NCBI RefSeq assembly: GCF_041146345.1
Contig: NW_027191410.1
Span: 744,001-808,000 of the forward strand
Source: Neodothiora populina
Taxonomy: Eukaryota
Reading direction: 5' to 3'
DNA: 64,000 nucleotides
Part shown: positions 8,752 to 58,146 of the stretch, one piece after another
Numbering within the stretch: position 1 is the first letter of the stretch
Layout of the letters: every line of letters starts with the position of its first letter
The notes under the pieces: generated by a model
Told to the model about the DNA's origin: nothing
Databases searched by the model: none
The model's input: only the letters and a program-made list of their open reading frames with translations
Made by a program: the position numbers and the translations under genes

Positions 8752-9816
8752 TCATCGGCTTCGAAGATTCATCACACTCTCGACTTTTCTCATAGTGGGG
8801 ATGCGCATTCGTTTCGACTGACTGCTCTCACGAGACTCCTCGATGGGACCGAAGGAGTCCATTCTGAGAGCAAAGGGACGGGGTGTGACCGAGTATCTAG
8901 GCTGCGCAATGGGAAAGTCCGGCAAGTTCTTGGCAAAAGGGCGATCGTTGTTGTTAGGTCGCGTCGCAGTCTTTGACCGAAGGCTTTTGTTGCTATACTC
9001 TGATGGAATGTAAGAGTATGTAGGAGGTGCACTTCGCAAAGCGGATGATCCAAGTCGCGGGTCGGACGTATCGTGCTTAACAATTTGCAGCTTCTTCGGG
9101 CGTAGTTCTTCATGGGCCTTACGACCCTTAGCCGTTGTGGTGGACTTCTTGGTAAGACCAGGACTAGCGAGGGGATCGAAGTGATATGAGTAATTCGGCG
9201 TGTTGGGTGTAGATGGTGTGCGGGCTGAGGTTGGAGTTCTCAGACCTTGCTCCAGCAGCGGTGTTGAAGGAACGTTGCTCTCTGCAGACGATGACCTGCT
9301 GAGGCTGCGTGCGTATTGTGTCTGCGCAAGAGCCTCGTTGATGCTTTCGCTGAAAGCTTTACTTGTACGATCGTGCACTCTGCTCAGGGTCACACGTGGG
9401 TGCCTGAGCATGGGCGCCGATGTCGTTCTAGGAATGTGGATGAGCTTTGGTCGACCCGCGGCGAACAGTCTTATTGCACGAGCATGCTCGTACTGCTGCT
9501 TGATGAGACTGCATTCCTCTGCTAGAGATTCTGGTAGAGTAGTGACAAAGTCGAACGCCGAGTCATCACCACCAACGTTGGAAAAGGTTTTGGTACTGAA
9601 GCTCATGTCGTCGGATTCTGGTGCAGAACAATCTTCTTCGTCAGACAGGTAAGAGTTCAGGAACAATGGTTCAGAACACAAGTCTGTAATTGTGGCTGAC
9701 ATAATAAGTGGTGCAGGTTTGTAGTCGTGACCGTTTTTCTCCTGACCCCTGCGCATGTGACCCGGGCTGTGGAGGACATGCTCCGCATTCAACGAGAGCG
9801 CGATGTCAGAAGCCAT
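8752..9816 (-). CDS. Hypothetical Ser/Thr/Pro-rich, probably disordered protein
   Basis: Over 350 open codons from the first ATG at 9816; no recognisable domain. A GTGAGT donor at 10260 could add an upstream exon, so the start is uncertain. Confidence 0.65.
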   Translation of the reverse strand: MASDIALSLNAEHVLHSPGHMRRGQEKNGHDYKPAPLIMSATITDLCSEPLFLNSYLSDEEDCSAPESDDMSFSTKTFSNVGGDDSAFDFVTTLPESLAEECSLIKQQYEHARAIRLFAAGRPKLIHIPRTTSAPMLRHPRVTLSRVHDRTSKAFSESINEALAQTQYARSLSRSSSAESNVPSTPLLEQGLRTPTSARTPSTPNTPNYSYHFDPLASPGLTKKSTTTAKGRKAHEELRPKKLQIVKHDTSDPRLGSSALRSAPPTYSYIPSEYSNKSLRSKTATRPNNNDRPFAKNLPDFPIAQPRYSVTPRPFALRMDSFGPIEESRESSQSKRMRIPTMRKVESVMNLRSR

Positions 9817-12000
9817 TATCCTTTCAGCAACGAGATGACCGATACTGGTCAGATTTGAGGTAGTGCTATGCACGTGTCCCAAGGATGTGCAGCTCTGTGA
9901 CAAGAATACGACTTGTACTAGCAGGGCAGGTTGCTCGATGAGTGTTTGGTGACTTGACCCAAATTAAGAGAAGGTATTCAGGTTCACAGTCAATTTCCAG
10001 ACTAATGAATAGATGTTCAGAAAGCACGATGATCTGGCGTAATGCTCAATCGATAGAGATAGTCAAGGATAAAAGGAATGCAGGCCGAATTGGCGAAAGT
10101 TCAGATTTCAGAGAATGTGGATCAGTTGGAATACTAGTAAAGAGCGTAAGGTGAGGAGGCAGTAGCACAAGGAGCACAAAAAAGCAAAGTAAATTGGAAT
10201 GTCTGACACAACGTGGATAAACAGTATCTATTAAGACATGGCAGGTGGACGCGCACTCACTGAGTTTTCAGTTGGTGATGCGGCATAACCGCCATGCTCC
10301 GCCATCCTCTCAGCATCATGGCTTGTCGACGTGGAGAGTCTGGTATGCAGTGACGCTAACATCACTCAATCGCTGAGAAGCCTCACGGCGATTGCCCCTA
10401 ATCATTAGCGGCCGGCGCTGACGGGATAAGCAGCGTGTTGTCCTGGATTGGCGGTAATCCTCGATTGTCCAATCTGGTTCATGTGCAGCCATCTTGGCGT
10501 CTTCAGGAACCGGTACACTCCCGTCCATGTACGTCGTGCCGTCTGTCTGGCTTGCTGGGCGACCTGTCGCTCTCATGTACTTGCCCTGGCAGAAACTTTC
10601 CCCCAGTTTCTGTACCAGAGATTCGCATTGTACCTCGAGATGTAGACGGAGTTCAGCTCCCCAACCCACACATTCTTCAAGCCAAACGTGCAAGGAACAA
10701 AAGCATGGTGATGCCCTTGGGTCGGCTAGACATTCACTCGATCGCACGATGGAGTGCTATGCTATGCACAGAAAACGGGAATTGGAGTCGAGTCGCTCGT
10801 CTCCCAGCCGTTGAGACACTGCACACCACCACTGTGATTGCGATCTATCCGTCTTCTATTTTAGTCGCAATTCTTGAGACCTTTGATTATAGCCGTTGAC
10901 CTTCTGAACCGCGTCGCGTCTGTGAGTGTCTCGGACGAGACAAAATGGGTCAGCAGGTCGTCCAAGGCATGAACATATCAGCCTGCTTGTGTCTTCACGC
11001 GAATGTCGCAAAGTAGTCCAATTTTTTTTTAAAAAATCTGCTTGATTGTGGACCTGTGGATGTTGACTAGCGACGAAGTTGCTCGTGAAGCCAGTTCGTG
11101 AGGCTTCGATCAAGACCAGCTTCAGCTTAGGTTTTTCTTCCGTAGCTGCCTGCTTCACCCCCTATCAATCGTATCGACAAACGCTGCAACGTTTGTCTCC
11201 TATCACAACGGTCGCGTCACGACAACGCGTTCCGCGCTCTCCTATGTGCCTGCGTTGATTGTGTCCTCATGCTTTGTTCGCGTGAACAATAGAGATGGCG
11301 GGAGCAGTCCATGACGATGACGGGGCAAGAGGAGCATGCATAATTCGGGGTTATATCGATGTACAGTACAGTATCCTGGCCTTACGCGTTCGGTCACAAC
11401 GAACCGAAGGTATCGCGCAGGCAGGGACCGCGACACTGCGAGACACGTGGTTCGCAGCCAAGCCAAGGATACTCCTTGTAAATCACGCAAGACATAATCT
11501 CATTTGAGTTTAAGCTCCAAAGTGGTTCGTGTTCGACTGATGTCGCTACAGCGGATATACGTCGTCCAGAGTCTCTTGTCCCATATCGATCTGATGCTTA
11601 TGGCTGATGCATTGCGAGGACGCATGTTTCCTGCGCCTAAACATGTGATGATCGGCTATGCATGAGTCTGCACAAGTGGCGCATAAATGTCAAGGCAAAG
11701 CATGTGAGTGTGATCAGCCCAACAATGCCATCTGTTGACGGGTTACTTGGAGGTACCAACAATCAGACACCCTGATGATAAAACATGCAGAGTAGCAGCA
11801 GATAGCACTCGACGAGTTTTTTCGTGAATCCATGCAGTGGGAAGGTCATTACGATAGCGTACAAGTGATGAACAATGGCAAGAGCCCGAGAACAGGATGA
11901 AGGGTATCATTGAATATTGCTCAGATCAATCATCTCGTGCCAGAGTGATTGAGATGCGTAAATGATGTACATGATTGGTCTCACCGTCGAGGGCAACTGC

Positions 12001-25472: not shown

Positions 25473-27781
25473 ATGGCTCAAGTGCGTTCATGCCCGTATA
25501 CCAACCCGCAGCTCCAGCAGCTTGGATCCATTGAGCTCAAGTTCTGACTCGACGTTGGCCTTGATGCGTTTAGAGGTTTCTTTCATAGATATAACGGTCT
25601 CTAACATTGGCTTCAGAACAAGAATGCAAACACCGATGCCGAGTTGGAGCAGTTGGGCTCCATCTTCTCGGTTTCCGGGTACGTTCTAACTGCGATATGC
25701 GCAATCAGCAACTTGGACTATAGATGTGCTGACACTGTGCTAGACCCGTCATCGTCGCCGAGAACATGATTGGTGTTGCCATGTACGAACTTGTATGCGA
25801 AATTCCCCGCCCAACAGCTGACTGCTCTCTGATCATTGCTCACCATTTCAGGTCAAAGTCGGACACGACAACCTAGTCGGCGAGGTCATCCGTATCTCTG
25901 CCGACAAGGCTACCATTCAGGTTTACGAGGAGACTGGTAAGATTGCGCCAATCAAGCTCTGCCGTGACACGCAAAAGAAACCCAGTCACAGCACTGCCAT
26001 ACATGTTCTGGACCACGCTGACAGTATACCTTACAGCTGGTGTCACCGTCGGTGACCCTGTCAAGAGAACTGGACAACCTCTGTCCGTCGAGCTCGGACC
26101 CGGCCTCATGGAGACTATCTACGACGGTATTCAACGACCTCTTAAGGGTATCGCCGATGAGTCCAACAGCATTTACATTCCTCGTGGTATCGACGTTCCC
26201 TCGCTCGACCGAACCAAGAAGTGGGAGTTCAAGCCTGGCAAGTACAAGGTCGGCGACCACATCACCGGTGGTGACGTCTTTGGCTCCGTCTGGGAGAACT
26301 CTCTCCTCAACGACCACAAGATCCTTCTTCCTCCCAGAGCCCGTGGTACCATCACCAGAATCGCCGAGGCTGGCGAATACACCGTCGACGAGAAGATCCT
26401 CGAGCTCGAGTTCGATGGAAAGAAGTCCGAGTTCAGCATGATGCACAAGTGGCCCGTCCGAGTCCCAAGACCCGTAAACGACAAGCTTGGTTCCGACTCG
26501 CCCTTCATTGTTGGTCAGCGTGTCTTGGACGCCCTCTTTCCATCCGTGCAGGGTGGTACCGTCTGTATCCCCGGTGCTTTCGGTTGCGGCAAGACAGTCA
26601 TCAGTCAATCTGTCTCCAAGTTCTCCAACAGCGATATCATCGTTTACGTCGGGTACGGTCCCAGATAATCCTCCCTCAACAGGCCTTTGCTGACTTCCTT
26701 CTTACAGATGCGGAGAGCGTGGCAACGAGATGGCTGAAGTCTTGATGGATTTCCCCGAGCTCACCATCGAGGTCGACGGCAAGAAGGAGCCCATCATGAA
26801 GCGCACCACCCTCATCGCAAACACTTCCAACATGCCTGTCGCTGCCCGTGAGGCCTCCATCTACACCGGAATTACGGTCGCTGAATATTTTCGCGATCAG
26901 GGCAAGGACGTGGCCATGATGGCTGATTCGTCTTCTCGCTGGGCCGAGGCTTTGCGTGAAATTTCTGGTCGTCTCGGAGAGATGCCTGCTGATCAAGGTT
27001 TCCCTGCCTACCTCGGAGCCAAGCTTGCTTCTTTCTACGAGCGTGCCGGTCGCGTCACAGCTCTTGGTAGCCCCGAGAGAAAGGGCAGTGTCAGTATCGT
27101 CGGTGCCGTCAGCCCTCCCGGCGGTGATTTCTCCGACCCCGTCACATCTAGTACTCTTGGTATCGTGCAAGTCTTCTGGGGCCTCGACAAGAAGCTCGCC
27201 CAGCGCAAACATTTCCCATCCATCAACACTTCGGTCTCCTACAGCAAATACGAGAGATCTCTGGACGCCTACTATCAACAGAACAACCCCGAGTTCCCTC
27301 GTCTGCGTGACCGCATCAAGGAGCTGCTTTCGACTTCCGAGGAGTTGGACCAGGTCGTGCAGTTGGTCGGAAAGTCTGCTCTCGGCGATGGAGACAAGAT
27401 TACCCTCGATGTTGCTACTTTGATCAAGGAGGACTTCCTTCAGCAGAACGGATACAGTGACTACGACCAATTCTGCCCACTTTGGAAGACGTTCTGGATG
27501 ATGAAGGCTATGATGGGATTCCACGATGAGGCACAAAAGGCTGTTGGTCAGGGACAGGCCTGGAACAAGGTCCGCGAGGCCACGGCGGATATCCAGACTC
27601 AATTGAGAAGCATGAAGTTCGAGTTGCCCACGGACGGCGAGGAGACTGTCACCAAGAAGGTAAGAAGACGCCTCTTCCATTTTCATTCATTAATGTCCCA
27701 CTTGCTGACATTCGAATCACACAGTACGAGGAATTGCTGCAACATATGAACGAGAGGTTTGCATCTGTTATCGACGAGTAA
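25473..27781 (+). CDS. VMA1: V-type ATPase catalytic subunit A (7 exons, no intein)
   Basis: [58 protein letters not shown]; six canonical introns; ends FASVIDE*. Confidence 0.98.
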
Positions 27782-34782: not shown

Positions 34783-37617
34783 TCATGCCTTTTGTTTCCT
34801 TGGAAACTTGTAGGCGTACTTCTGATATGGCGAATTTTCATCGATGCCACACTCTTCCCGACCCCACTGACCTAGCAATACCTTACCCATAAACTCCTTC
34901 TCCTTTTCTAGTTGAGCGACCTTGTCCTCCAAAGAGCATTTGTCTTTACGAGCTTCCTTCAGTTTCGCACGCCACGAATCTTCCTTCTTCTTCATGACTT
35001 CGGAGATGCGCTTGTCGAGATCCTGCTCGAGAGCGTTCCTTTCCGCTAGAGACTGCTCGGCTTTTTCCAGGCTTTCCTTTGTCAATTCACATTCTTGCTT
35101 CATGGCTGAGACGTGTGCGGCCGAAGCAGCGCGATCTTGTCGAGCGCCAGCCATGGCTTCTTCGATAAGAAGGACTGCTTTACGATGCTCTTCGGCCTCG
35201 GCAGCACGGATTTTCGCGTTAGCTTCTGTCTGAGCTGCCACATGGGCCTTCACGTTGGCGACGTCCAATTCGCACTGCGACTTGATGCTCTTGATCTTGG
35301 AGTCGTGTTGCTGCTTGAAGCTCTTCATCTTGGCTTGGTGTTGTCGTCTTTGGTCCTGAAAGCGTTTCTTCAGGACCTCCATCTCCAGTCTCAGTGAGTC
35401 GGCGAGCTTGAGAGCCTTGTCATATCCGGCATTGAGCTCGTCGAAGTCCTTGGATGGCCCATCAGGTGCATCGAGATCATCAGCGTCCAGTCTGCTAAGG
35501 TCCTGCATCACATCGAGCTCTTCTCTCAAGGCCTTTGCTTCATCTTCAGCTTTCTGTCTAGCTGCCTGCTCCGCTGCACGCTGTTGAGATGCGCTACTCA
35601 ATTGCTGTTCCAGATGCTTTCGCGATTCCTGGTCATTGGTGCGTTCTTTGTTGGCAGCTGCCAATTTGTCTTCGGCCTGCTTTCGCAAGGCCTGCTCTGC
35701 TGCATAGTCTTCTTTCAACTTCTGGAGTTCGGCAAGGGTGTTGTCATTGGTCTCCTGCACATTGGTTCTGCGTTCATGGGTAAGTTTTTCAAGCTGACCC
35801 TGAGCTTCGTGCAGACGTCGCTCCAGACTGAGGCGGAGCTCTTCTGACTGGCGCAACTTCTCGTCGGACACTGCGCCGACCGGCGTATGACTCCCATCGT
35901 GGACATGATTGGTTTCTTGGAAAGCCTTGAGCTCTTCCAACTCGCTGTAGTACCGGTCTGCGTCCGAACGAGCATGCTCTTCTTGTCTCTGGGCTTCGTC
36001 GAGTTCCTTACGCAGACGTTGAGTCTCGTCTCTAAGAGCGGTGGCGTGCTCGTTCATTTGCTGGCGCAGCAGGCGTAAGTTATCGTTGGCAACTTTCTCG
36101 GAGTCTCTGCTGTGTTGTAAATCAGACTTTGCGGCAGCAAGGTCTTTCCCCAGACGCTGGACCTCCTCGTCATGAGCGCGCCCTTGCTCCTCAAGATGGT
36201 TCTTGAGCTCGTCAAAACTGCTCCTCGTGGCATGTTCGGAGTTCTGGGCCTGTTGCAGCTTCCACCTCATATCTTGCAGCTCGGCATCTTCAGACTCATG
36301 CATTTGATCGAGTTCTTTCGCTCGGTCGTCAGCCAGCTGCTGAGCGTCGTAGGCGGCATGCTTGGCGGCATCGAGATCTTTTCCTCTTTGTTCCGCAAGA
36401 TGGAGTAGCTCTTGTTCGGAGCGGCGCAAGCCATCCACTTCATTCATCAGATCGTCTATCTGCCTTTGATGCTCTTGTCGGTGCAGTTCTGCAGTGTGCT
36501 CCATCTCATAGTTGCGCTCTCGCACGAGCTCAAATTCGGACCTGAGACCCCTGTAATTCTGTCTTTCTTTCTCAAGCTGAGCGTTGAGTGTTTGCACTGC
36601 ATTCTGGGCCTGGGACTGCGCTTGTTGTACATCAGCGAGCTCCGTATGCAACGCGCGGAAATCGTTGTTGCGAGAACTGCTATCTCTGAAGTTGTCATTC
36701 GGCAGGAGAGCACGAGTCGGCGACAGATTGTCGATTGACGGCCGGTCAGGCGAGTGAATGCGTGGCTGAGGGCGTTGAGAAGGTCGTAAATTCAAGGCAG
36801 ATACTGGGCGACGAGGGGGATCAGGTGTTAGTTGAGCAGTTGACTGGGGCACAGTCGAATGCGGTCGAGCTGGAGTCAGATCGCTATTGTAATCCTCTAC
36901 AGTGGGTTGAAGTAGGCTTTTGGGTCGACGCATTTGAGAGAAGCGAAGCGAAGAAGAATTATGCTGAGGATCCCAGATTGAACTCTCTTGGTCAGCTCCT
37001 AGCTCTTTATCGTCGTCGTGGCTATCATATTGGTCGCGGTCGTCATTTTCGCCGTCGTCTTGGAACACCGACGATCCCTGCGTATACGCCTGGGGCTGGT
37101 CAATGTTGAGATTTGTTGCACTATCCTCGAGACTAGATGCCCTGGAATGGCCCGAGCCTGCTCTCTCATCTCTTCGTACATGATCGATTGGGTCCTGGCC
37201 AGCTTCAGAGTCGTCATGTCGGACCGCACGCGAGTGGGTTCCATCATTGCTATCACTTCTCGCGCCACCGGTATTCTCTTCACTGTTGGCGTTTCCCTTA
37301 GCCTTCGACGTTCCAGAAGGAGATCCAGGTCGCGACAAAGACCTCTGTCTGCTTTCGTCATGGATGGTGTTGACTTTAGACTTATCGAAGCTGTTCCTAG
37401 CTACGCGCTGTCTGCGAGAAGAGCCATTGATATATCTACCAAGGTTGATGGTAAAGTCGGTCGGACCATCAATGTCGCTGCTTGCAATCCTATCTATGTT
37501 GACCTCTGGGAGGAACGACAAAGGTTCTGTGTCATCAAGATCAAGAGCGTCAAGGTCCAATGAGTACTGGGTTGGAGAAGCAGGACCATCTTCGTTGGCA
37601 TGGGCCGCTGACTCCAT
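34783..37617 (-). CDS. Large coiled-coil protein, resembles spindle pole body-associated SnaD
   Basis: 944-aa ORF with long heptad-rich segments; short conserved-looking motifs DIDGPTDFTINL (N-terminal) and LLGQWGREECG..KYAYK (C-terminal). The SnaD assignment is from memory. Confidence 0.7.
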   Translation of the reverse strand: MESAAHANEDGPASPTQYSLDLDALDLDDTEPLSFLPEVNIDRIASSDIDGPTDFTINLGRYINGSSRRQRVARNSFDKSKVNTIHDESRQRSLSRPGSPSGTSKAKGNANSEENTGGARSDSNDGTHSRAVRHDDSEAGQDPIDHVRRDERAGSGHSRASSLEDSATNLNIDQPQAYTQGSSVFQDDGENDDRDQYDSHDDDKELGADQESSIWDPQHNSSSLRFSQMRRPKSLLQPTVEDYNSDLTPARPHSTVPQSTAQLTPDPPRRPVSALNLRPSQRPQPRIHSPDRPSIDNLSPTRALLPNDNFRDSSSRNNDFRALHTELADVQQAQSQAQNAVQTLNAQLEKERQNYRGLRSEFELVRERNYEMEHTAELHRQEHQRQIDDLMNEVDGLRRSEQELLHLAEQRGKDLDAAKHAAYDAQQLADDRAKELDQMHESEDAELQDMRWKLQQAQNSEHATRSSFDELKNHLEEQGRAHDEEVQRLGKDLAAAKSDLQHSRDSEKVANDNLRLLRQQMNEHATALRDETQRLRKELDEAQRQEEHARSDADRYYSELEELKAFQETNHVHDGSHTPVGAVSDEKLRQSEELRLSLERRLHEAQGQLEKLTHERRTNVQETNDNTLAELQKLKEDYAAEQALRKQAEDKLAAANKERTNDQESRKHLEQQLSSASQQRAAEQAARQKAEDEAKALREELDVMQDLSRLDADDLDAPDGPSKDFDELNAGYDKALKLADSLRLEMEVLKKRFQDQRRQHQAKMKSFKQQHDSKIKSIKSQCELDVANVKAHVAAQTEANAKIRAAEAEEHRKAVLLIEEAMAGARQDRAASAAHVSAMKQECELTKESLEKAEQSLAERNALEQDLDKRISEVMKKKEDSWRAKLKEARKDKCSLEDKVAQLEKEKEFMGKVLLGQWGREECGIDENSPYQKYAYKFPRKQKA

Positions 37618-38025
37618 GATGGAGTGTAGTGGTTCCTCAAGTATCGAGATTTATGCTCACGCGTCAAATACACAATATCAGTATAATTTCCGTCGATTCC
37701 AAAGGAGTGTTGATGACTTCATCAAAAGTCTTGATTGGATTAATGTTTGTTTTGGTCCAGTGTTTAGATCTAGTGTTTTGGCTCTTCAAGTGCGGGACAC
37801 TTCCGCCTGCGCCTTCCCCACAACGAACGGCCGCCGAACCCTGGCGATGCATTTATCATATATCACATTACCGCATTTATCGCATTATTGCAGAATCGTC
37901 CTTGATTCTGTGACAAGACTAGGTGAAGTGAAGTAAATGTTGTGCATCGCTTGACGGTGATGTGGTTGGTGATGCAATCGCACATGATAGTGTTCCCGAA
38001 TTGCCATTCGTGACTCCCGAAGATT

Positions 38026-46532: not shown

Positions 46533-47954
46533 ATGGATCACCCTGCAGCTCCAGGACACAGTGGGCTTGATAGCAAGCAAAGGGCAACGATCATACCTAC
46601 TATAGTGCTCACATGCCTTGCGACCTTTGTCGTGCTACTCCGCCTCATCACTCGAGGTAAAATCGTACACAGCCTTGGGGCAGACGACGGAGTGATTGTG
46701 CTATCTCTGATACTGTCGTGGGCAGTATGCGGCTTGACAATCGGCATAGTGGAGCAAGGTATCGGAGGATACGTATGGAAATCTCAGCTCGATCTCATGG
46801 CATCGAACGCAAAGACAGTGCTCGCCTGGCAGTGCGTTTACATGTTGTTGATTCACGTGAACAAAGCCTCAATGCTTATGCAGTATCTGCGAATCTTCAT
46901 CGGTCGTAAGACAAGAGTCTGCACGTACATGCTACTCGTGGCGCTGATGCCAGCTTTACTCTGGGGCTTGCTGGGTGGCATCCTACTATGCCATCCCGTG
47001 CCGAAACTGTGGCACCCTCGACTAAAAGGACATTGCATGAGTCTGAGAACGTACTGGTTGTCCACCGCTAGTGTGAATATCCTACTCGACTTTGCCACGG
47101 TCTTCATGCCCATGCCAGCACTCTGGAAGTTGAAGCTGCCAGTCCAGCAAAAGGCAGGACTCATGGCGGTCTTCATCCTCGGCTTCTTGTACGTTCTATA
47201 CTTTCTATTTCAACAGAGCCTCTATTTATCAACGGCGCCACCTCTACACAAAAAGACAAATCACCACCATCATTCAATAGACTAATTTCCTTCAAGCGTC
47301 TGCGCCGTCGCCCTAGTGCACAACGGCAACAAGCACCAAGACTGGACAGAAGCGAGCACGGACAACTTCACATGGTCGACCATCGAGGCCAACACGGGCA
47401 TCATCTGCGCTTCGTGCGTGGCGTTGAAACCTCTCTTAGCTAGACTGCTGCCGCGGTTTGTGGCGGATGGATTGGTCGGGGTTTATACTCGGTGGAGAAG
47501 CGGGGGGAGGTTTATCTTCTTATAATGTAGCTTTATTCCAATTAGTAAATCACGCTTTCTATAAAGGACTTCTTTTCTTAGGAGCGGGTGCGGTGATTCA
47601 CGCAGTAGCTGATAATCAAGATTTTAGAAGATATGGAGGATTAAGACCTTTCTTACCTCTAACTTATTCAGTTATGTTAATAGCTAGTCTTAGTCTAGTA
47701 GCATTCCCTTTTATGACAGGTTTCTACTCAAAAGATTTTATATTAGAGTCTGCATATGGACAATTTTATTTCTCTAGTACAGTTGTATATTTTATAGTAG
47801 TAGTCTGTCGACGAGGTTTACTGCTACATCGTCGCTGGGGAGGAAGGCGAGTAGAGGAGTGACCGAGGGCGAGGGACGGGACAGTAGGGACAATAACTCG
47901 GATACTGATCGGAGAGAGAGCTCTCTGACTGGGACGTATCATCAGGGTCTTTAG
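46533..47954 (+). CDS. PTH11-like / fungal rhodopsin-domain integral membrane protein, interrupted by a NUMT (ends at 47525 if the NUMT is retained, 47954 if removed)
   Basis: [73 protein letters not shown]; intron 47189-47296. Confidence 0.85.
47510..47797 (+). pseudogene. nad5: NUMT: fragment of mitochondrial NADH dehydrogenase subunit 5
   Basis: Abrupt AT-rich segment with TTA/AGA/ATA codon usage translating to [45 protein letters not shown]...[14 protein letters not shown], the ND5 core signature. Confidence 0.95.
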
Positions 47955-54306: not shown

Positions 54307-57300
54307 TCAAGTCCGCGCTGCTGCTGCTGCGTCTTCGATGCCAGCCAGAAACGAAGTCGATGAATCGTCGACTTGCCTCTTATCCTTCTCGGCGAATTCG
54401 GTCACTGAAAGATCAATGCTCTCGTCCGGGTCCACTTTCAGGCTGTCCGAGACCGCTTGTGGGCTTCTCCTTTCATCCATGTCGCCCACGCCTTCTTCCT
54501 CGAGAACCTTGTGCTCGACCACAGCACTATGCCGACCAGATCCAGCAGGCACGGGAGAGCTATCTGCCGCGCCGTCGAGCCCCGTGTTCTTCATATTGCG
54601 CCTGGCCTTTTTCTTGCTTCTCTTATCCTCTCTCTGCTGTCGTTCCAGCCGAATAAGCTCGTCGCGTATCTCAGCCCTTTTCCTGGCCGGGTCGAAGTCC
54701 GCAAAGTCGTTGTTCTTGTCCATTTCGCGCGAGAGGACTTTGCGGACGAATTCACAGGGATTCTTCAAGAACTCGGCGACATAGCCCACGAGATAGACGC
54801 CGCAGTCACAGAAGTTGGTTTGTTCTGGAATTCCTCGAGCTAAGAGGCCGCGGAGGTCATCCCGCTTGATGGACATGCCGCGCTTTTCTTGCGCTTCTTG
54901 GATCAGGTAGTCTTTTAGGTTCCTAACCTCGGGTCCATGTGTCCCTCCGAGGGAATCGAGAGTGATGATGACAGGTCTGAGATATTGTTAGCGGCTATGA
55001 GTTCCCAACATGCTGTGGCTGAACGTACTGATCTGGGTTCACTTTTGGCAAGGGTGGTGCAACCCTCTTTTTGCCCTTCCGTGACACGATCCTAGCTTGT
55101 TTCGGAGTTCGCTCAGTAGATTCCAAGGCATCAGTGTGTCCAGATTCGGTTGATATGTCGATTGTCGGTCTAGCCACTTTTCGTTCTTCCAATTCGTTGT
55201 CTGAGAACGACATTCTGTGAACTTCTTTCCTAATGGGTTCGAGACTTTGATCTTCCTGCGAGTCGGGCAATTCCATGACAAGCCCATTTTCGATCATGTT
55301 GCCTGTTTTAAGCTTGTCGTCCAGCATTGTGGTTTCATCCTCCTCCTGCACACCCTCGGCATCTTCCTCGTCGTCATCCACTAGCCTTCTGCTCAGCTTG
55401 TCCAAGTTGCAGATGATAGTGACGAACCAATGCAAGTTGACGTTGACAGGTACCACCACAAATGGCAACGAGAAAATGTCGATGTTTTTTGTCCACCTCT
55501 TTACGGCATCATAATTGAAGGCTCTCCTTCCTTGCTTGGTACTGAGAGCCGTGTAGAAGAACGTATTGAATATGTGTACCTTGCTTGTCGCTTCCGGGTG
55601 CTGTTCCTCGAGATGGCGAAGACAAAACGAGATGATGTTGTCGTTGAGAAATTCACCATCGTCCAGGCGCTCGATGTCTGTCACGTCCACCGTCGTTCGC
55701 TTTGCGCCTGTCGACGGGTAGATCAAGGGAGCATCCCAGTTCAAGGGACCGTGTTGCTGTGTCCAGCGCTCAGGCTCTGCTTCGTCTACTGCCGCAACTT
55801 GATGTTTTCGTTGCAAACGGTTACTGTTTCTTGTAGGCTTTGATGTTGGCGTTGTGGTGGGTTGCTGCTTAAGTGGTGACTCTCTTCTATCATTTACGGG
55901 ACCACCGTATTCATTATGCGAAATTGTTTCGCGTCCAGGGTGCTTGACCAAGACAGAGACGCCATCCGATGATGGCCTCTTTTGACCCTCATGGGGCTGC
56001 TGGACCTCATCATTGATAAATGAACGTTGATGCTCCGAAGCTGCGCTCGATTGCTTGGGCACGGCAGTCAATGGCATAGGATTATCATTACTGTCAATAT
56101 TGATCTTTCGAGGTTCTGATCTTTTCCGCTCAAAGTCAATGATTTCGCGGGCCCTCTCGAATGACTTCTCGATTTCCCGCCTGTAAAAGACTGTCAGTTC
56201 AGGCAATACGCGTGTGTGCTTGGAAGCAGCTTACCCAGTGAGTATTTTGCTGACGTGCTTGCCTACGCAAACACGAGTCACCTGCGCCTTGAAAAGCTCC
56301 AAATCCTCTCGGGTGTAAAAGCTCATCCAGACTTCGCCACCAGTAATATCATCTTTTGCACCTCGCATTCCGATGCGGAGCGACTCTGCGGGATTTGCGA
56401 TCATGGACTGGGCGTGTTTACTCGACAATGCATAAGGCTTGTTGTGGAAATACATGGCTGGTTGCCCTTGCCGCTTTACAATGAACTGGCCTTCCTCCGG
56501 GATGTATTCTGAAGATAGATCATCTCTCTCTCCAAGGTCCACAGATAAAGTGAATATTGACGCAAGTCTGACCTCTGTGTTGGAATCCAATACATCATGG
56601 TTCTCACTCTTGTCAAGCCTGTCGTCCCGAAGCTTTTTCTGCTTGGACGTGTTGGAGGGCGCACGATTGGAAAAAGCGTTGAACCAGGATTTGGCACCGT
56701 GTGCAATGGAACGAGGACTTTTCCTGATAGTCACAGAACCGTTGGCAAGCTCATCCTCACTGCTCTCGACATCGATCTTTTCCGCGACTGCTCCTATCAC
56801 GAATGGCCTTTTTTTCGTCTGAGTTTGAGGACTGCCAACATCAGAGCTGGCAAGCATGCGTTTTCGTAAGCTGCCATTCGAAGTGGAAGGTCTTTCCGTG
56901 TCCCTCGCAAAAGTCTGGCTCAAAGGGGGTGAGGCATCACGAATAGCCCGCTTGTGGCTGTGCCTGCTCTGCATAGGTGAAGCCGGTGATGAATCTTGCT
57001 TGGTCGGCGCAGTCCTTGTGTTCTGCTTAGAGGACAATACATCGGAAATACTTGGTATCTGGATGGTTGGTGACCGTGCTCTTTCGGAGTGAAAGTGATT
57101 CGGTTGCCGTAGCAATGACTGGGATTGGTTAGATCTCTGGCCTGCTACACTAACATCGGTGTCCCCGAGCTTGTGCGACTGGGATCTTTGGATGTCTAAT
57201 GCTGCATTGCTACGACCTCCGCGCGCAACTTGTGTCGAATCTTGAGAGTCAGGAATCTCTACAATTTCGATTGCACCAGTATCAATTTGGGGATTCGAAG

Positions 57301-58146
57301 CATCTGGGGAAGACTTTGGTTTGCGAGACTTCTTCTTCGCAGGTCCGAGAACAGTGTTCATGTCTCGGGACTCGTCGCATGCAAAGGGATCTCCGGGTCT
57401 TGAGGGTTTCTGAGAATCCTGAGACGGAACAGATTGAGTGCTAAGCTTTCTGGAACCTGGGTTTGGTGAAGAGGCAGGTTCTTGCCTGTACGGTGCATTC
57501 CTCATACGGGAGCCGTTTCGGTTCTGTACCACTTCCACCTCCGACGGTGGGTTGAGTCTGCGGCGCTTTTGGCCTCCGTGTTCTTCAAAGTATTGCGGAT
57601 TGGCAGTCGCCGGTACGTTATCGCCAGCGTGACTTGCTATGTCCAGAACGTGCACATGTGAACGACGCGGTCGACTGATGATCCCCTCGCCGAAAGCATT
57701 GGATCCAAGTGTATTGGTAGGGCGGAACGACGCCCCTCCTAGCCGCCGTGTCATCTGGTAAGATGGAGTATCGTCCACGAGTAGAGGATCCGGGTGACTC
57801 TCTAGATGGCTGCGTCCAGCAGAGCGGAAGTCCACCCTATGTAGGCATGCATGTGAGCTATGCACACTGCAGAAAATACGAAATGTGGCAGTAGTTGAAA
57901 GGCGTACTTGTGAGTATGTACAGCTTGCCTGGAAGAGCCGTGATGCACTGGTTGTCTGTCTGCGCGAGATGGATTGTGAATATCATTTCTCTGTGGAGGT
58001 TGACAATTATTAGCCCAGTTGCAGGTGGAGTTTGATCGCAGCATGGCTTTGTCTATTCTGTGAATGAAACTACCCGCCTTGATGTGCGATTCACGGCGAT
58101 CGCCAAACAGTCTGGAAAAGCAGTCGTTCCATAGCCTGGATGCCAT
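54307..58146 (-). CDS. ULP2: Ulp2-like SUMO protease (peptidase C48); 5' end uncertain
   Basis: RLDDGEFLNDNII, FNTFFYTAL, VKRWTK, NLHWF (His), ITLDSLG (Asp), PEQTNFCDCGVY (Gln/Cys) across spliced ORFs; long disordered N-terminus. Confidence 0.85.

Follow-up and report, generated by a model that had tools for sequence, protein, structure and literature searches.

Does a piece of mitochondrial DNA that begins with GT, ends with AG and lies in the 3′ coding part of a nuclear gene leave the transcript as an intron, or does it stay and end the protein? The question is raised by a 288-nt segment of nad5 in Neodothiora populina (Dothideales, Dothideomycetes), located within the 64,000-nt stretch of genomic DNA that was analysed here and is referred to as the window. 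NUMTs are common, and those of fungi are documented (excerpted text of PMC12125605, which cites Hazkani-Covo 2010 and Sacerdot 2008). A very young NUMT that lies in a coding exon and retains both junctions gives a clean record of the mending of a chromosome break with organellar DNA, and the locus offers a yes/no case for the splicing-out of raw organellar DNA in a fungus. Were the segment a newborn intron, a debated route of intron gain could be put to direct test in a fungus that can be cultured and for which the source sequence is known. Among papers that name N. populina, none concerns its genome or its NUMTs, as judged by titles and abstracts.

Host gene

Nuclear housekeeping genes in the window were identified by Pfam searches of long open reading frames and include those for XPB/RAD25 helicase, SAM decarboxylase, V-ATPase A, Rtt109, eIF4E and Ulp1. 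Three further open frames had no Pfam match at E values up to 1e-5: 8755–9963 (−), 34786–37650 (−) and 56234–57982 (−), of 403, 955 and 583 codons, respectively. The gene that holds the nad5 segment was read directly from the sequence as two exons and one intron:

46533–47188, + strand: exon 1, from the ATG, encoding the first six helices; PF20684 at E 2.8e-41, 142 bits, profile positions 1–182 of 237.
47189–47296, + strand: intron 1, 108 nt, GTACGT...CTAAT...CAAG; frame-restoring, with a GTRNGT donor, and bridging profile positions 1–182 and 195–237.
47297–47509, + strand: exon 2 as far as the insertion, encoding the seventh-helix motif and 25 tail codons and ending ...RWRSGG; PF20684 at E 1.5e-08, 35 bits, profile positions 195–237 of 237.

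Both exons scored above the PF20684 gathering cut-off of 27 bits, and between them the Fung_rhodopsin model was covered from end to end. A Delphinella homologue (P0005) reads LGFFVCGV uninterrupted across the site of intron 1. The insertion lies 25 codons past the seventh-helix motif (...ALKP), and the seven-helix core is therefore untouched.

Fung_rhodopsin is a very large family, with 9347 matches at E values up to 0.001. Homologues of the host were found at 58–68% identity (five proteins in the exon-1 search, the best at 68%), and the full HMMER scan held no closer orthologue. Among database proteins of 119–382 residues, none reached 90% identity to exon 1, although the database does include the product of the nearby Rtt109 gene from this assembly, an N. 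populina protein encoded on a contig of 1,376,365 nt to which the Rtt109 frame of the window is 100% identical. Because the truncated and the intron-removed models both fall within this length range, the deposited annotation may omit the host gene or model it in some other way.

Identity and limits of the insert

The inserted element is as follows:

47510–47797, + strand: NUMT, 288 nt net of nad5, residues about 318–413; homology possibly begins at 47508; one base off the host frame.

Translation of 47509–47797 in the sense orientation gave a stop-free nad5 frame in which every codon reads alike under the mould mitochondrial code (table 4), table 11 and the standard code. In a search of structure chains, 46 distinct ND5/NuoL-type sequences matched the insert, including PDB chain 7zm7_5 (ND5), which aligned over its residues about 318–414 at E 1.4e-47; Pfam returned PF00361 at E 6.3e-18. 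Each of the ten best nad5 proteins from the protein database search (full or partial, environmental) shared 95 of 96 residues with the insert. Its identity as nad5 is far beyond chance. A search for RNA-family elements gave a single minus-strand match in the insert, which was rejected, its E value being 0.46 and its score far under the gathering threshold.

For comparison at the nucleotide level, a collection of bacterial and archaeal genomes was scanned, yielding 80 loci, 17 of which are fungal-type mitochondrial contigs misfiled as bacterial. Fifteen of these 17 matched at full length, with 77–86% nucleotide identity to the insert; note that the best value, 86%, refers to these comparison loci and not to the mitochondrion of N. 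populina itself. Alignment of the 17 loci with the window (blastn) limited mitochondrial homology to a start at 47508 or 47509 and an end between 47795 and 47802. No second mitochondrial piece was found by blastn of the 17 loci against the whole 64 kb, and with tblastx the matches were confined to 47506–47805, with none elsewhere in the window.

The insert has a G+C content of 32.3%, versus a window mean of 51%, and is the longest of the 13 low-GC islands of the window. The flanks have about 51% G+C, versus 14–35% in 500-nt steps across 6 kb around five of the mitochondrial loci. Both flanks belong to one PF20684 gene, and the DNA on either side is nuclear; the similarity of the insert to a mitochondrial gene is significant. 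By every feature examined the element is a NUMT, and the first-pass annotation, which had placed a nad5-derived NUMT inside the 3′ coding part of a nuclear gene, is borne out by the nad5 matches and by the PF20684 flanks.

Each boundary carries an ambiguity of up to 2 nt. In related mitochondrial DNA, A is the last base of the codon before the fragment in 9 of 17 loci, and G is the first base of the codon after it in 15 of 15; given these flanking-codon bases, up to 290 nt may be organellar.

Reading frame across the insert

At the left junction the host frame reads AGC GGG GGG AG/G TTT ATC TTC TTA TAA. Because the insert is one base out of frame, the host frame meets TAA after five new codons (RFIFL), and the open reading frame 47286..47525 terminates ...RSGGRFIFL:

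47523–47525, + strand: stop in use (TAA), supplied by the insert, first of eight in-frame stops within it.

Like other Fung_rhodopsin (PF20684) proteins of Pezizomycotina, the host matches the family model; its C-terminus now lies 30 residues past the ..KP motif, and about 90% of the 54 homologues examined have a longer tail. At the right junction the sequence is TTTTATAG/TAG/TAG/TCTG, continuing as TAGTAGTCTGTCG. Three AG dinucleotides spaced by three bases end here at 47797, 47800 and 47803. The premature TAA after RFIFL, the junction sequences, the AG at both junctions and the three 3′ AGs had all been pointed out in the first-pass annotation, and reading of the sequence confirmed them.

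A fusion protein in the nad5 frame was also considered. The frame 47440..47862 (+) has 140 open codons, spanning host sequence, the whole insert and then 22 codons of the host tail, but its phase differs from that of the host gene and no start is evident. This candidate was rejected, and the open frame is probably meaningless.

The frame downstream of the insert

Downstream of the insert the host frame resumes in an open reading frame (47778..47954) that, from 47799, stays open until the stop at 47952–47954:

47798–47954, + strand: probable former C-terminal tail, 51 codons plus a split codon, with stop TAG at 47952–47954; recognized by its open frame and codon score.

What the empty site encoded depends on how many bases are removed:

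288 nt removed: 52 further open codons.
289 nt removed: a 21-codon tail.
290 nt removed: an immediate TAG TAG, the empty site reading GGG GGG TAG TAG (...GGGGGGTAGTAG...).

Owing to the junction ambiguity, the frame-restoring excision of 288 nt is one of several reconstructions. An earlier claim that removal of 47510–47797 restores a 52-codon tail is accordingly kept as to the open frame and given up as to the uniqueness of the reconstruction, which the ambiguity of 1–2 nt does not allow.

Codon log-odds were calculated from 6993 codons of Pfam-supported open reading frames. The tail frame scored +0.56, versus −22.0 and −27.1 for the other two frames, which contain 2 and 5 stops. In calibration, coding windows ranged from −0.9 to 24.9 (5th to 95th percentile), and the exons of the host gene itself scored 2.3 and 5.4. 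Among 558 noncoding-like windows, 3.8% were open over the length of the tail and 6.1% attained its codon score. Of the 21 that were open, 43% scored as high as the tail, and for this reason the codon evidence is mostly the absence of stops.

Beyond the ..KP motif, the tails of the 54 homologues have a median length of 111 residues, with a 10th percentile of 55; the host has 25 residues up to the junction, which, given these lengths, would be unusual for an original tail. Comparison of the 51 tail residues with 153 homologues gave nothing significant (best E 0.11 with blastp, 0.084 with phmmer), and the tail frame had no Pfam match. We regard it as very probable that the insertion occurred within former coding sequence, and the 52-codon frame that follows is, as read from its open frame, probably the former tail.

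Introns used for comparison

The consensus for fungal introns, attributed to Kupfer et al. in 2004, is said to be GTRNGT at the donor and CTRAY at the branch site. A small reference set was formed by three introns of the window whose positions follow from split Pfam domains:

47189–47296, + strand: host gene, 108 nt, GTACGT, CTAAT.
54977–55028, − strand: Ulp1, 52 nt, GTACGT, CTAAC.
26653–26707: V-ATPase A, 55 nt, GTACGG, CTGAC.

In all three, CTRAY lies 12–14 nt from the acceptor (YAG). Frame-bridging scans returned 270 and 5254 candidates, mostly chance GT/AG pairs, and these were left out. Additional candidates selected by consensus were also left out, being circular with respect to the donor.

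Splicing and alternative histories

A newborn spliceosomal intron would run from GT at 47510 to the AG that ends at 47797, 47800 or 47803, and would be removed from at least part of the transcripts, keeping a full-length protein. The insert does begin with GT (47510–47511) and end with AG, with three in-frame acceptors. Its excision restores the open 52-codon frame, its 288 nt are divisible by three, and an 8-nt direct repeat lies near its junctions. It is A+T-rich relative to the exons, with a moderately T-rich end (47.5% T in the last 40 nt), and introns derived from mitochondrial DNA are documented (excerpts of PMC3443670 and PMC4202315). However, the donor, GTTTAT, has T at +3 (no purine) and A at +5 (no G), GTRNGT is absent throughout 47440–47810, and the branch A of the only CTRAY motifs precedes the acceptor by 185 and 135 nt. 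At 288 nt the insert would also be long for this genome, in which the Pfam-fixed introns measure 52–108 nt. Four features of spliceosomal introns were considered: GT...AG and restoration of the frame were found, whereas a donor close to GTRNGT and a suitably placed CTRAY were not. Such an intron is highly unlikely. Likewise highly unlikely is an intron caught at birth, in which microhomology-assisted capture of mitochondrial DNA would have left an 8-nt direct repeat, resembling those around new Daphnia introns, and would have been followed by inefficient splicing from the weak GTTTAT donor to one of three tandem AGs. As judged from these signals, the insert most likely stays in the transcript. 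The first-pass annotation had put forward the insert as a candidate NUMT-derived intron, a proposal with which the donor, the branch site and the reference introns all disagree; its own caveats, that the donor is weak and that no CTRAY lies near the acceptor, hold, the nearest branch A being 135 nt away. Of the two outcomes that it had offered, intron gain or a new C-terminus, the truncated C-terminus is favoured and intron gain is not.

The insertion could instead have occurred at or after the original stop. All 290 nt (47508–47797) would then be foreign and the gene would formerly have ended ...RSGG followed by TAG TAG; the insert would add only five residues and truncate nothing, and the “tail” would be 3′ untranslated sequence that is open by chance. 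Homology can indeed reach 47508, as the A-ending (9/17) and G-starting (15/15) flanking codons indicate; the 290-nt reconstruction gives an instant stop and then a second TAG, and the tail shows neither significant homology to relatives nor a Pfam match. But only about 4% of noncoding-like windows are expected to stay open for 52 codons in the continuing phase, the other frames hold 2 and 5 stops, and a 25-residue tail falls below the 10th percentile of 55 residues in the 54 homologues. Moreover, a 306-nt reconstruction based on the flanking repeat GAGGTTTA restores the same frame. We therefore consider an insertion at or beyond the original stop unlikely. An assembly artefact, in which abundant mitochondrial reads were threaded into a nuclear contig, can be imagined in that mitochondrial DNA is high-copy in sequencing libraries and the handling of mitochondrial reads affects NUMT assembly in Penicillium (excerpts of PMC12125605). 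Against it, the insert is internal both to the 64-kb window and to a contig of 1,376,365 nt, and it carries Gln where 120 of 120 nad5 relatives have His, which is not expected of reads from a functional mitochondrion. Since the same gene and the same reading frame run on from one flank to the other, without visible loss of host bases, and the junctions share just 2–8 nt, an artefact is extremely unlikely.

Junction anatomy

Three features that the first-pass annotation had not described are the junction ambiguity, a His-to-Gln change within the insert and the 8-nt direct repeat that flanks it:

47507–47514, + strand: left copy of the direct repeat GAGGTTTA, across the left junction.
47813–47820, + strand: right copy of GAGGTTTA, in host sequence 15 nt past the right junction; its codon phase matches that of the left copy.

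Flanking repeats of at least 8 nt that straddle a junction and lie within 40 nt were found in 0.8% of 200,000 random 288-nt pseudo-insertions in the window, in a simulation that was chosen post hoc. The repeat, which brackets the insert plus 15 nt, suggests a microhomology-assisted junction. Possible microhomology at each junction amounts to 1–2 nt. Under the alternative 306-nt model the host would formerly have read ...GGGGG GAGGTTTA CTGC..., and the fragment would have been joined through 7 nt of microhomology (AGGTTTA); the 306 nt would then be the sum of 283 nt of nad5, 15 nt of filler and the duplicated 8-mer. Frame and distal tail are then restored just as in the 288-nt model. No other copy of the 15-nt filler was found in the window.

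The insertion lies between a run of six G residues (47502–47507) and an (AGT)3-like repeat (47797–47806), GGGGGGAG / TAGTAGT, and such low-complexity sequence might be prone to breakage. The first seven bases of the fragment, GGTTTAT (47509–47515), also occur in the host at 47480–47486, 29 nt upstream of the left junction, and the leading hexamer, GGTTTA, has two host copies near the site, at 47480 and 47815. These copies may be coincidence, or homology that steered the position of joining.

Age and nuclear status

A single residue of the insert is absent from its relatives:

47539–47541, + strand: CAA (Gln), position 11 of the insert, at a His that is invariant in nad5.

His occupies this site in 120 of the 120 nad5 relatives listed, and each of the 17 mitochondrial loci encodes it by CAT or CAC. 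The change argues for a separate nuclear copy and against stray mitochondrial reads. The substitution of an invariant residue, along with 96 codons free of stops and indels, fits a young copy that is drifting in the nucleus. With one amino-acid change per 96 codons, no stop and no indel, the insertion would accordingly be recent. The source of the fragment is most likely the fungus's own mitochondrial gene.

Proposed history of the locus

The explanation that we consider likely is that a young NUMT from the fungus's own nad5, captured by end joining, truncates the tail of a Fung_rhodopsin gene and is not spliced. A chromosome break would have arisen in the last exon of this seven-helix gene, 25 codons past the seventh-helix motif, and repair by end joining would have inserted 288 nt net of mitochondrial nad5 in the sense orientation, one base off frame. 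The seven-helix core would be retained, and about 52 codons of the cytoplasmic tail would be lost from the protein and now form an untranslated trailer. An unspliced message would carry about 430 nt of extra trailer beyond the new stop, and whether this alters the stability of the transcript is a matter of speculation. We infer capture by end joining, the original-tail status of the downstream frame and the lack of splicing from the sequence, while the insert and its limits, the nuclear context, the gene model and the present stop are observed directly. Loss of the tail probably costs little, this being a poorly conserved tail in one member of a very large family.

End joining captures mitochondrial DNA (excerpts of PMC3443670 and PMC12125605), and both short flanking repeats and mitochondrial inserts are reported for break-repair insertions (excerpts of PMC3443670). 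Like break-captured NUMTs in general, the one described here is a short fragment of organellar composition in nuclear DNA, whose insertion removed few or no host bases and whose junctions each show 0–2 nt of microhomology. It differs from them in that it sits in coding sequence and alters the end of a protein, and the bracketing 8-nt repeat is longer than the microhomology usual at NUMT junctions. In the excerpted text of the Penicillium NUMT study no disrupted coding region is reported (PMC12125605), unlike the situation here. The case is a good example of the already well-known fungal NUMTs and not a new kind of element.

The closest parallel to an intron is the neo-intron of Daphnia pulex that derives from mitochondrial 16S rDNA (Li et al. 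2009; excerpts of PMC3443670 and PMC4202315). There, as here, an organellar insert in an exon is bounded by GT...AG, a short direct repeat lies near the junctions and removal restores the frame. Splicing of the Daphnia neo-intron was observed, whereas the present insert is known from its sequence, and its donor and branch site are unlike those of the window's introns.

De novo NUMTs that disrupt human disease genes have been described. These resemble the present insert in being recent mitochondrial fragments in or beside an exon that alter the gene product; in N. populina, in contrast, only a poorly conserved tail is removed. Curtis and Archibald reportedly described, in 2010, spliceosomal introns of mitochondrial-DNA origin.

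The locus shows the effect of an organellar insertion on a gene, and a demonstrated absence of splicing would document NUMT-driven remodelling of a protein tail. It also calls for caution in annotation: automatic gene prediction may “rescue” the frame with an intron call for which there is no evidence, and filtering of mitochondrial reads may damage the locus.

Misfiled mitochondrial records

The 17 comparison loci (L001–L017) are filed as bacterial genomes or MAGs and carry fungal-type, A+T-rich mitochondrial nad5 with 84–97% protein identity to the insert. They include records of Streptomyces, Paenibacillus and Fictibacillus and a contig of 575,684 nt from an Eremiobacteria MAG; a long nad5 reading frame is present in L001. 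These records look like fungal mitochondrial contamination or mis-binning.

One metagenomic protein (P0007, 320 residues, from a 1129-nt contig) contains two tandem copies of the segment that is homologous to the insert (residues 12–107 and 134–229), each copy being identical to the window's insert at 84 of 96 residues. Its outsized search score is due to this double segment. The contig is mitochondrial and unrelated, and the tandem reflects a duplication in it or else an error of assembly.
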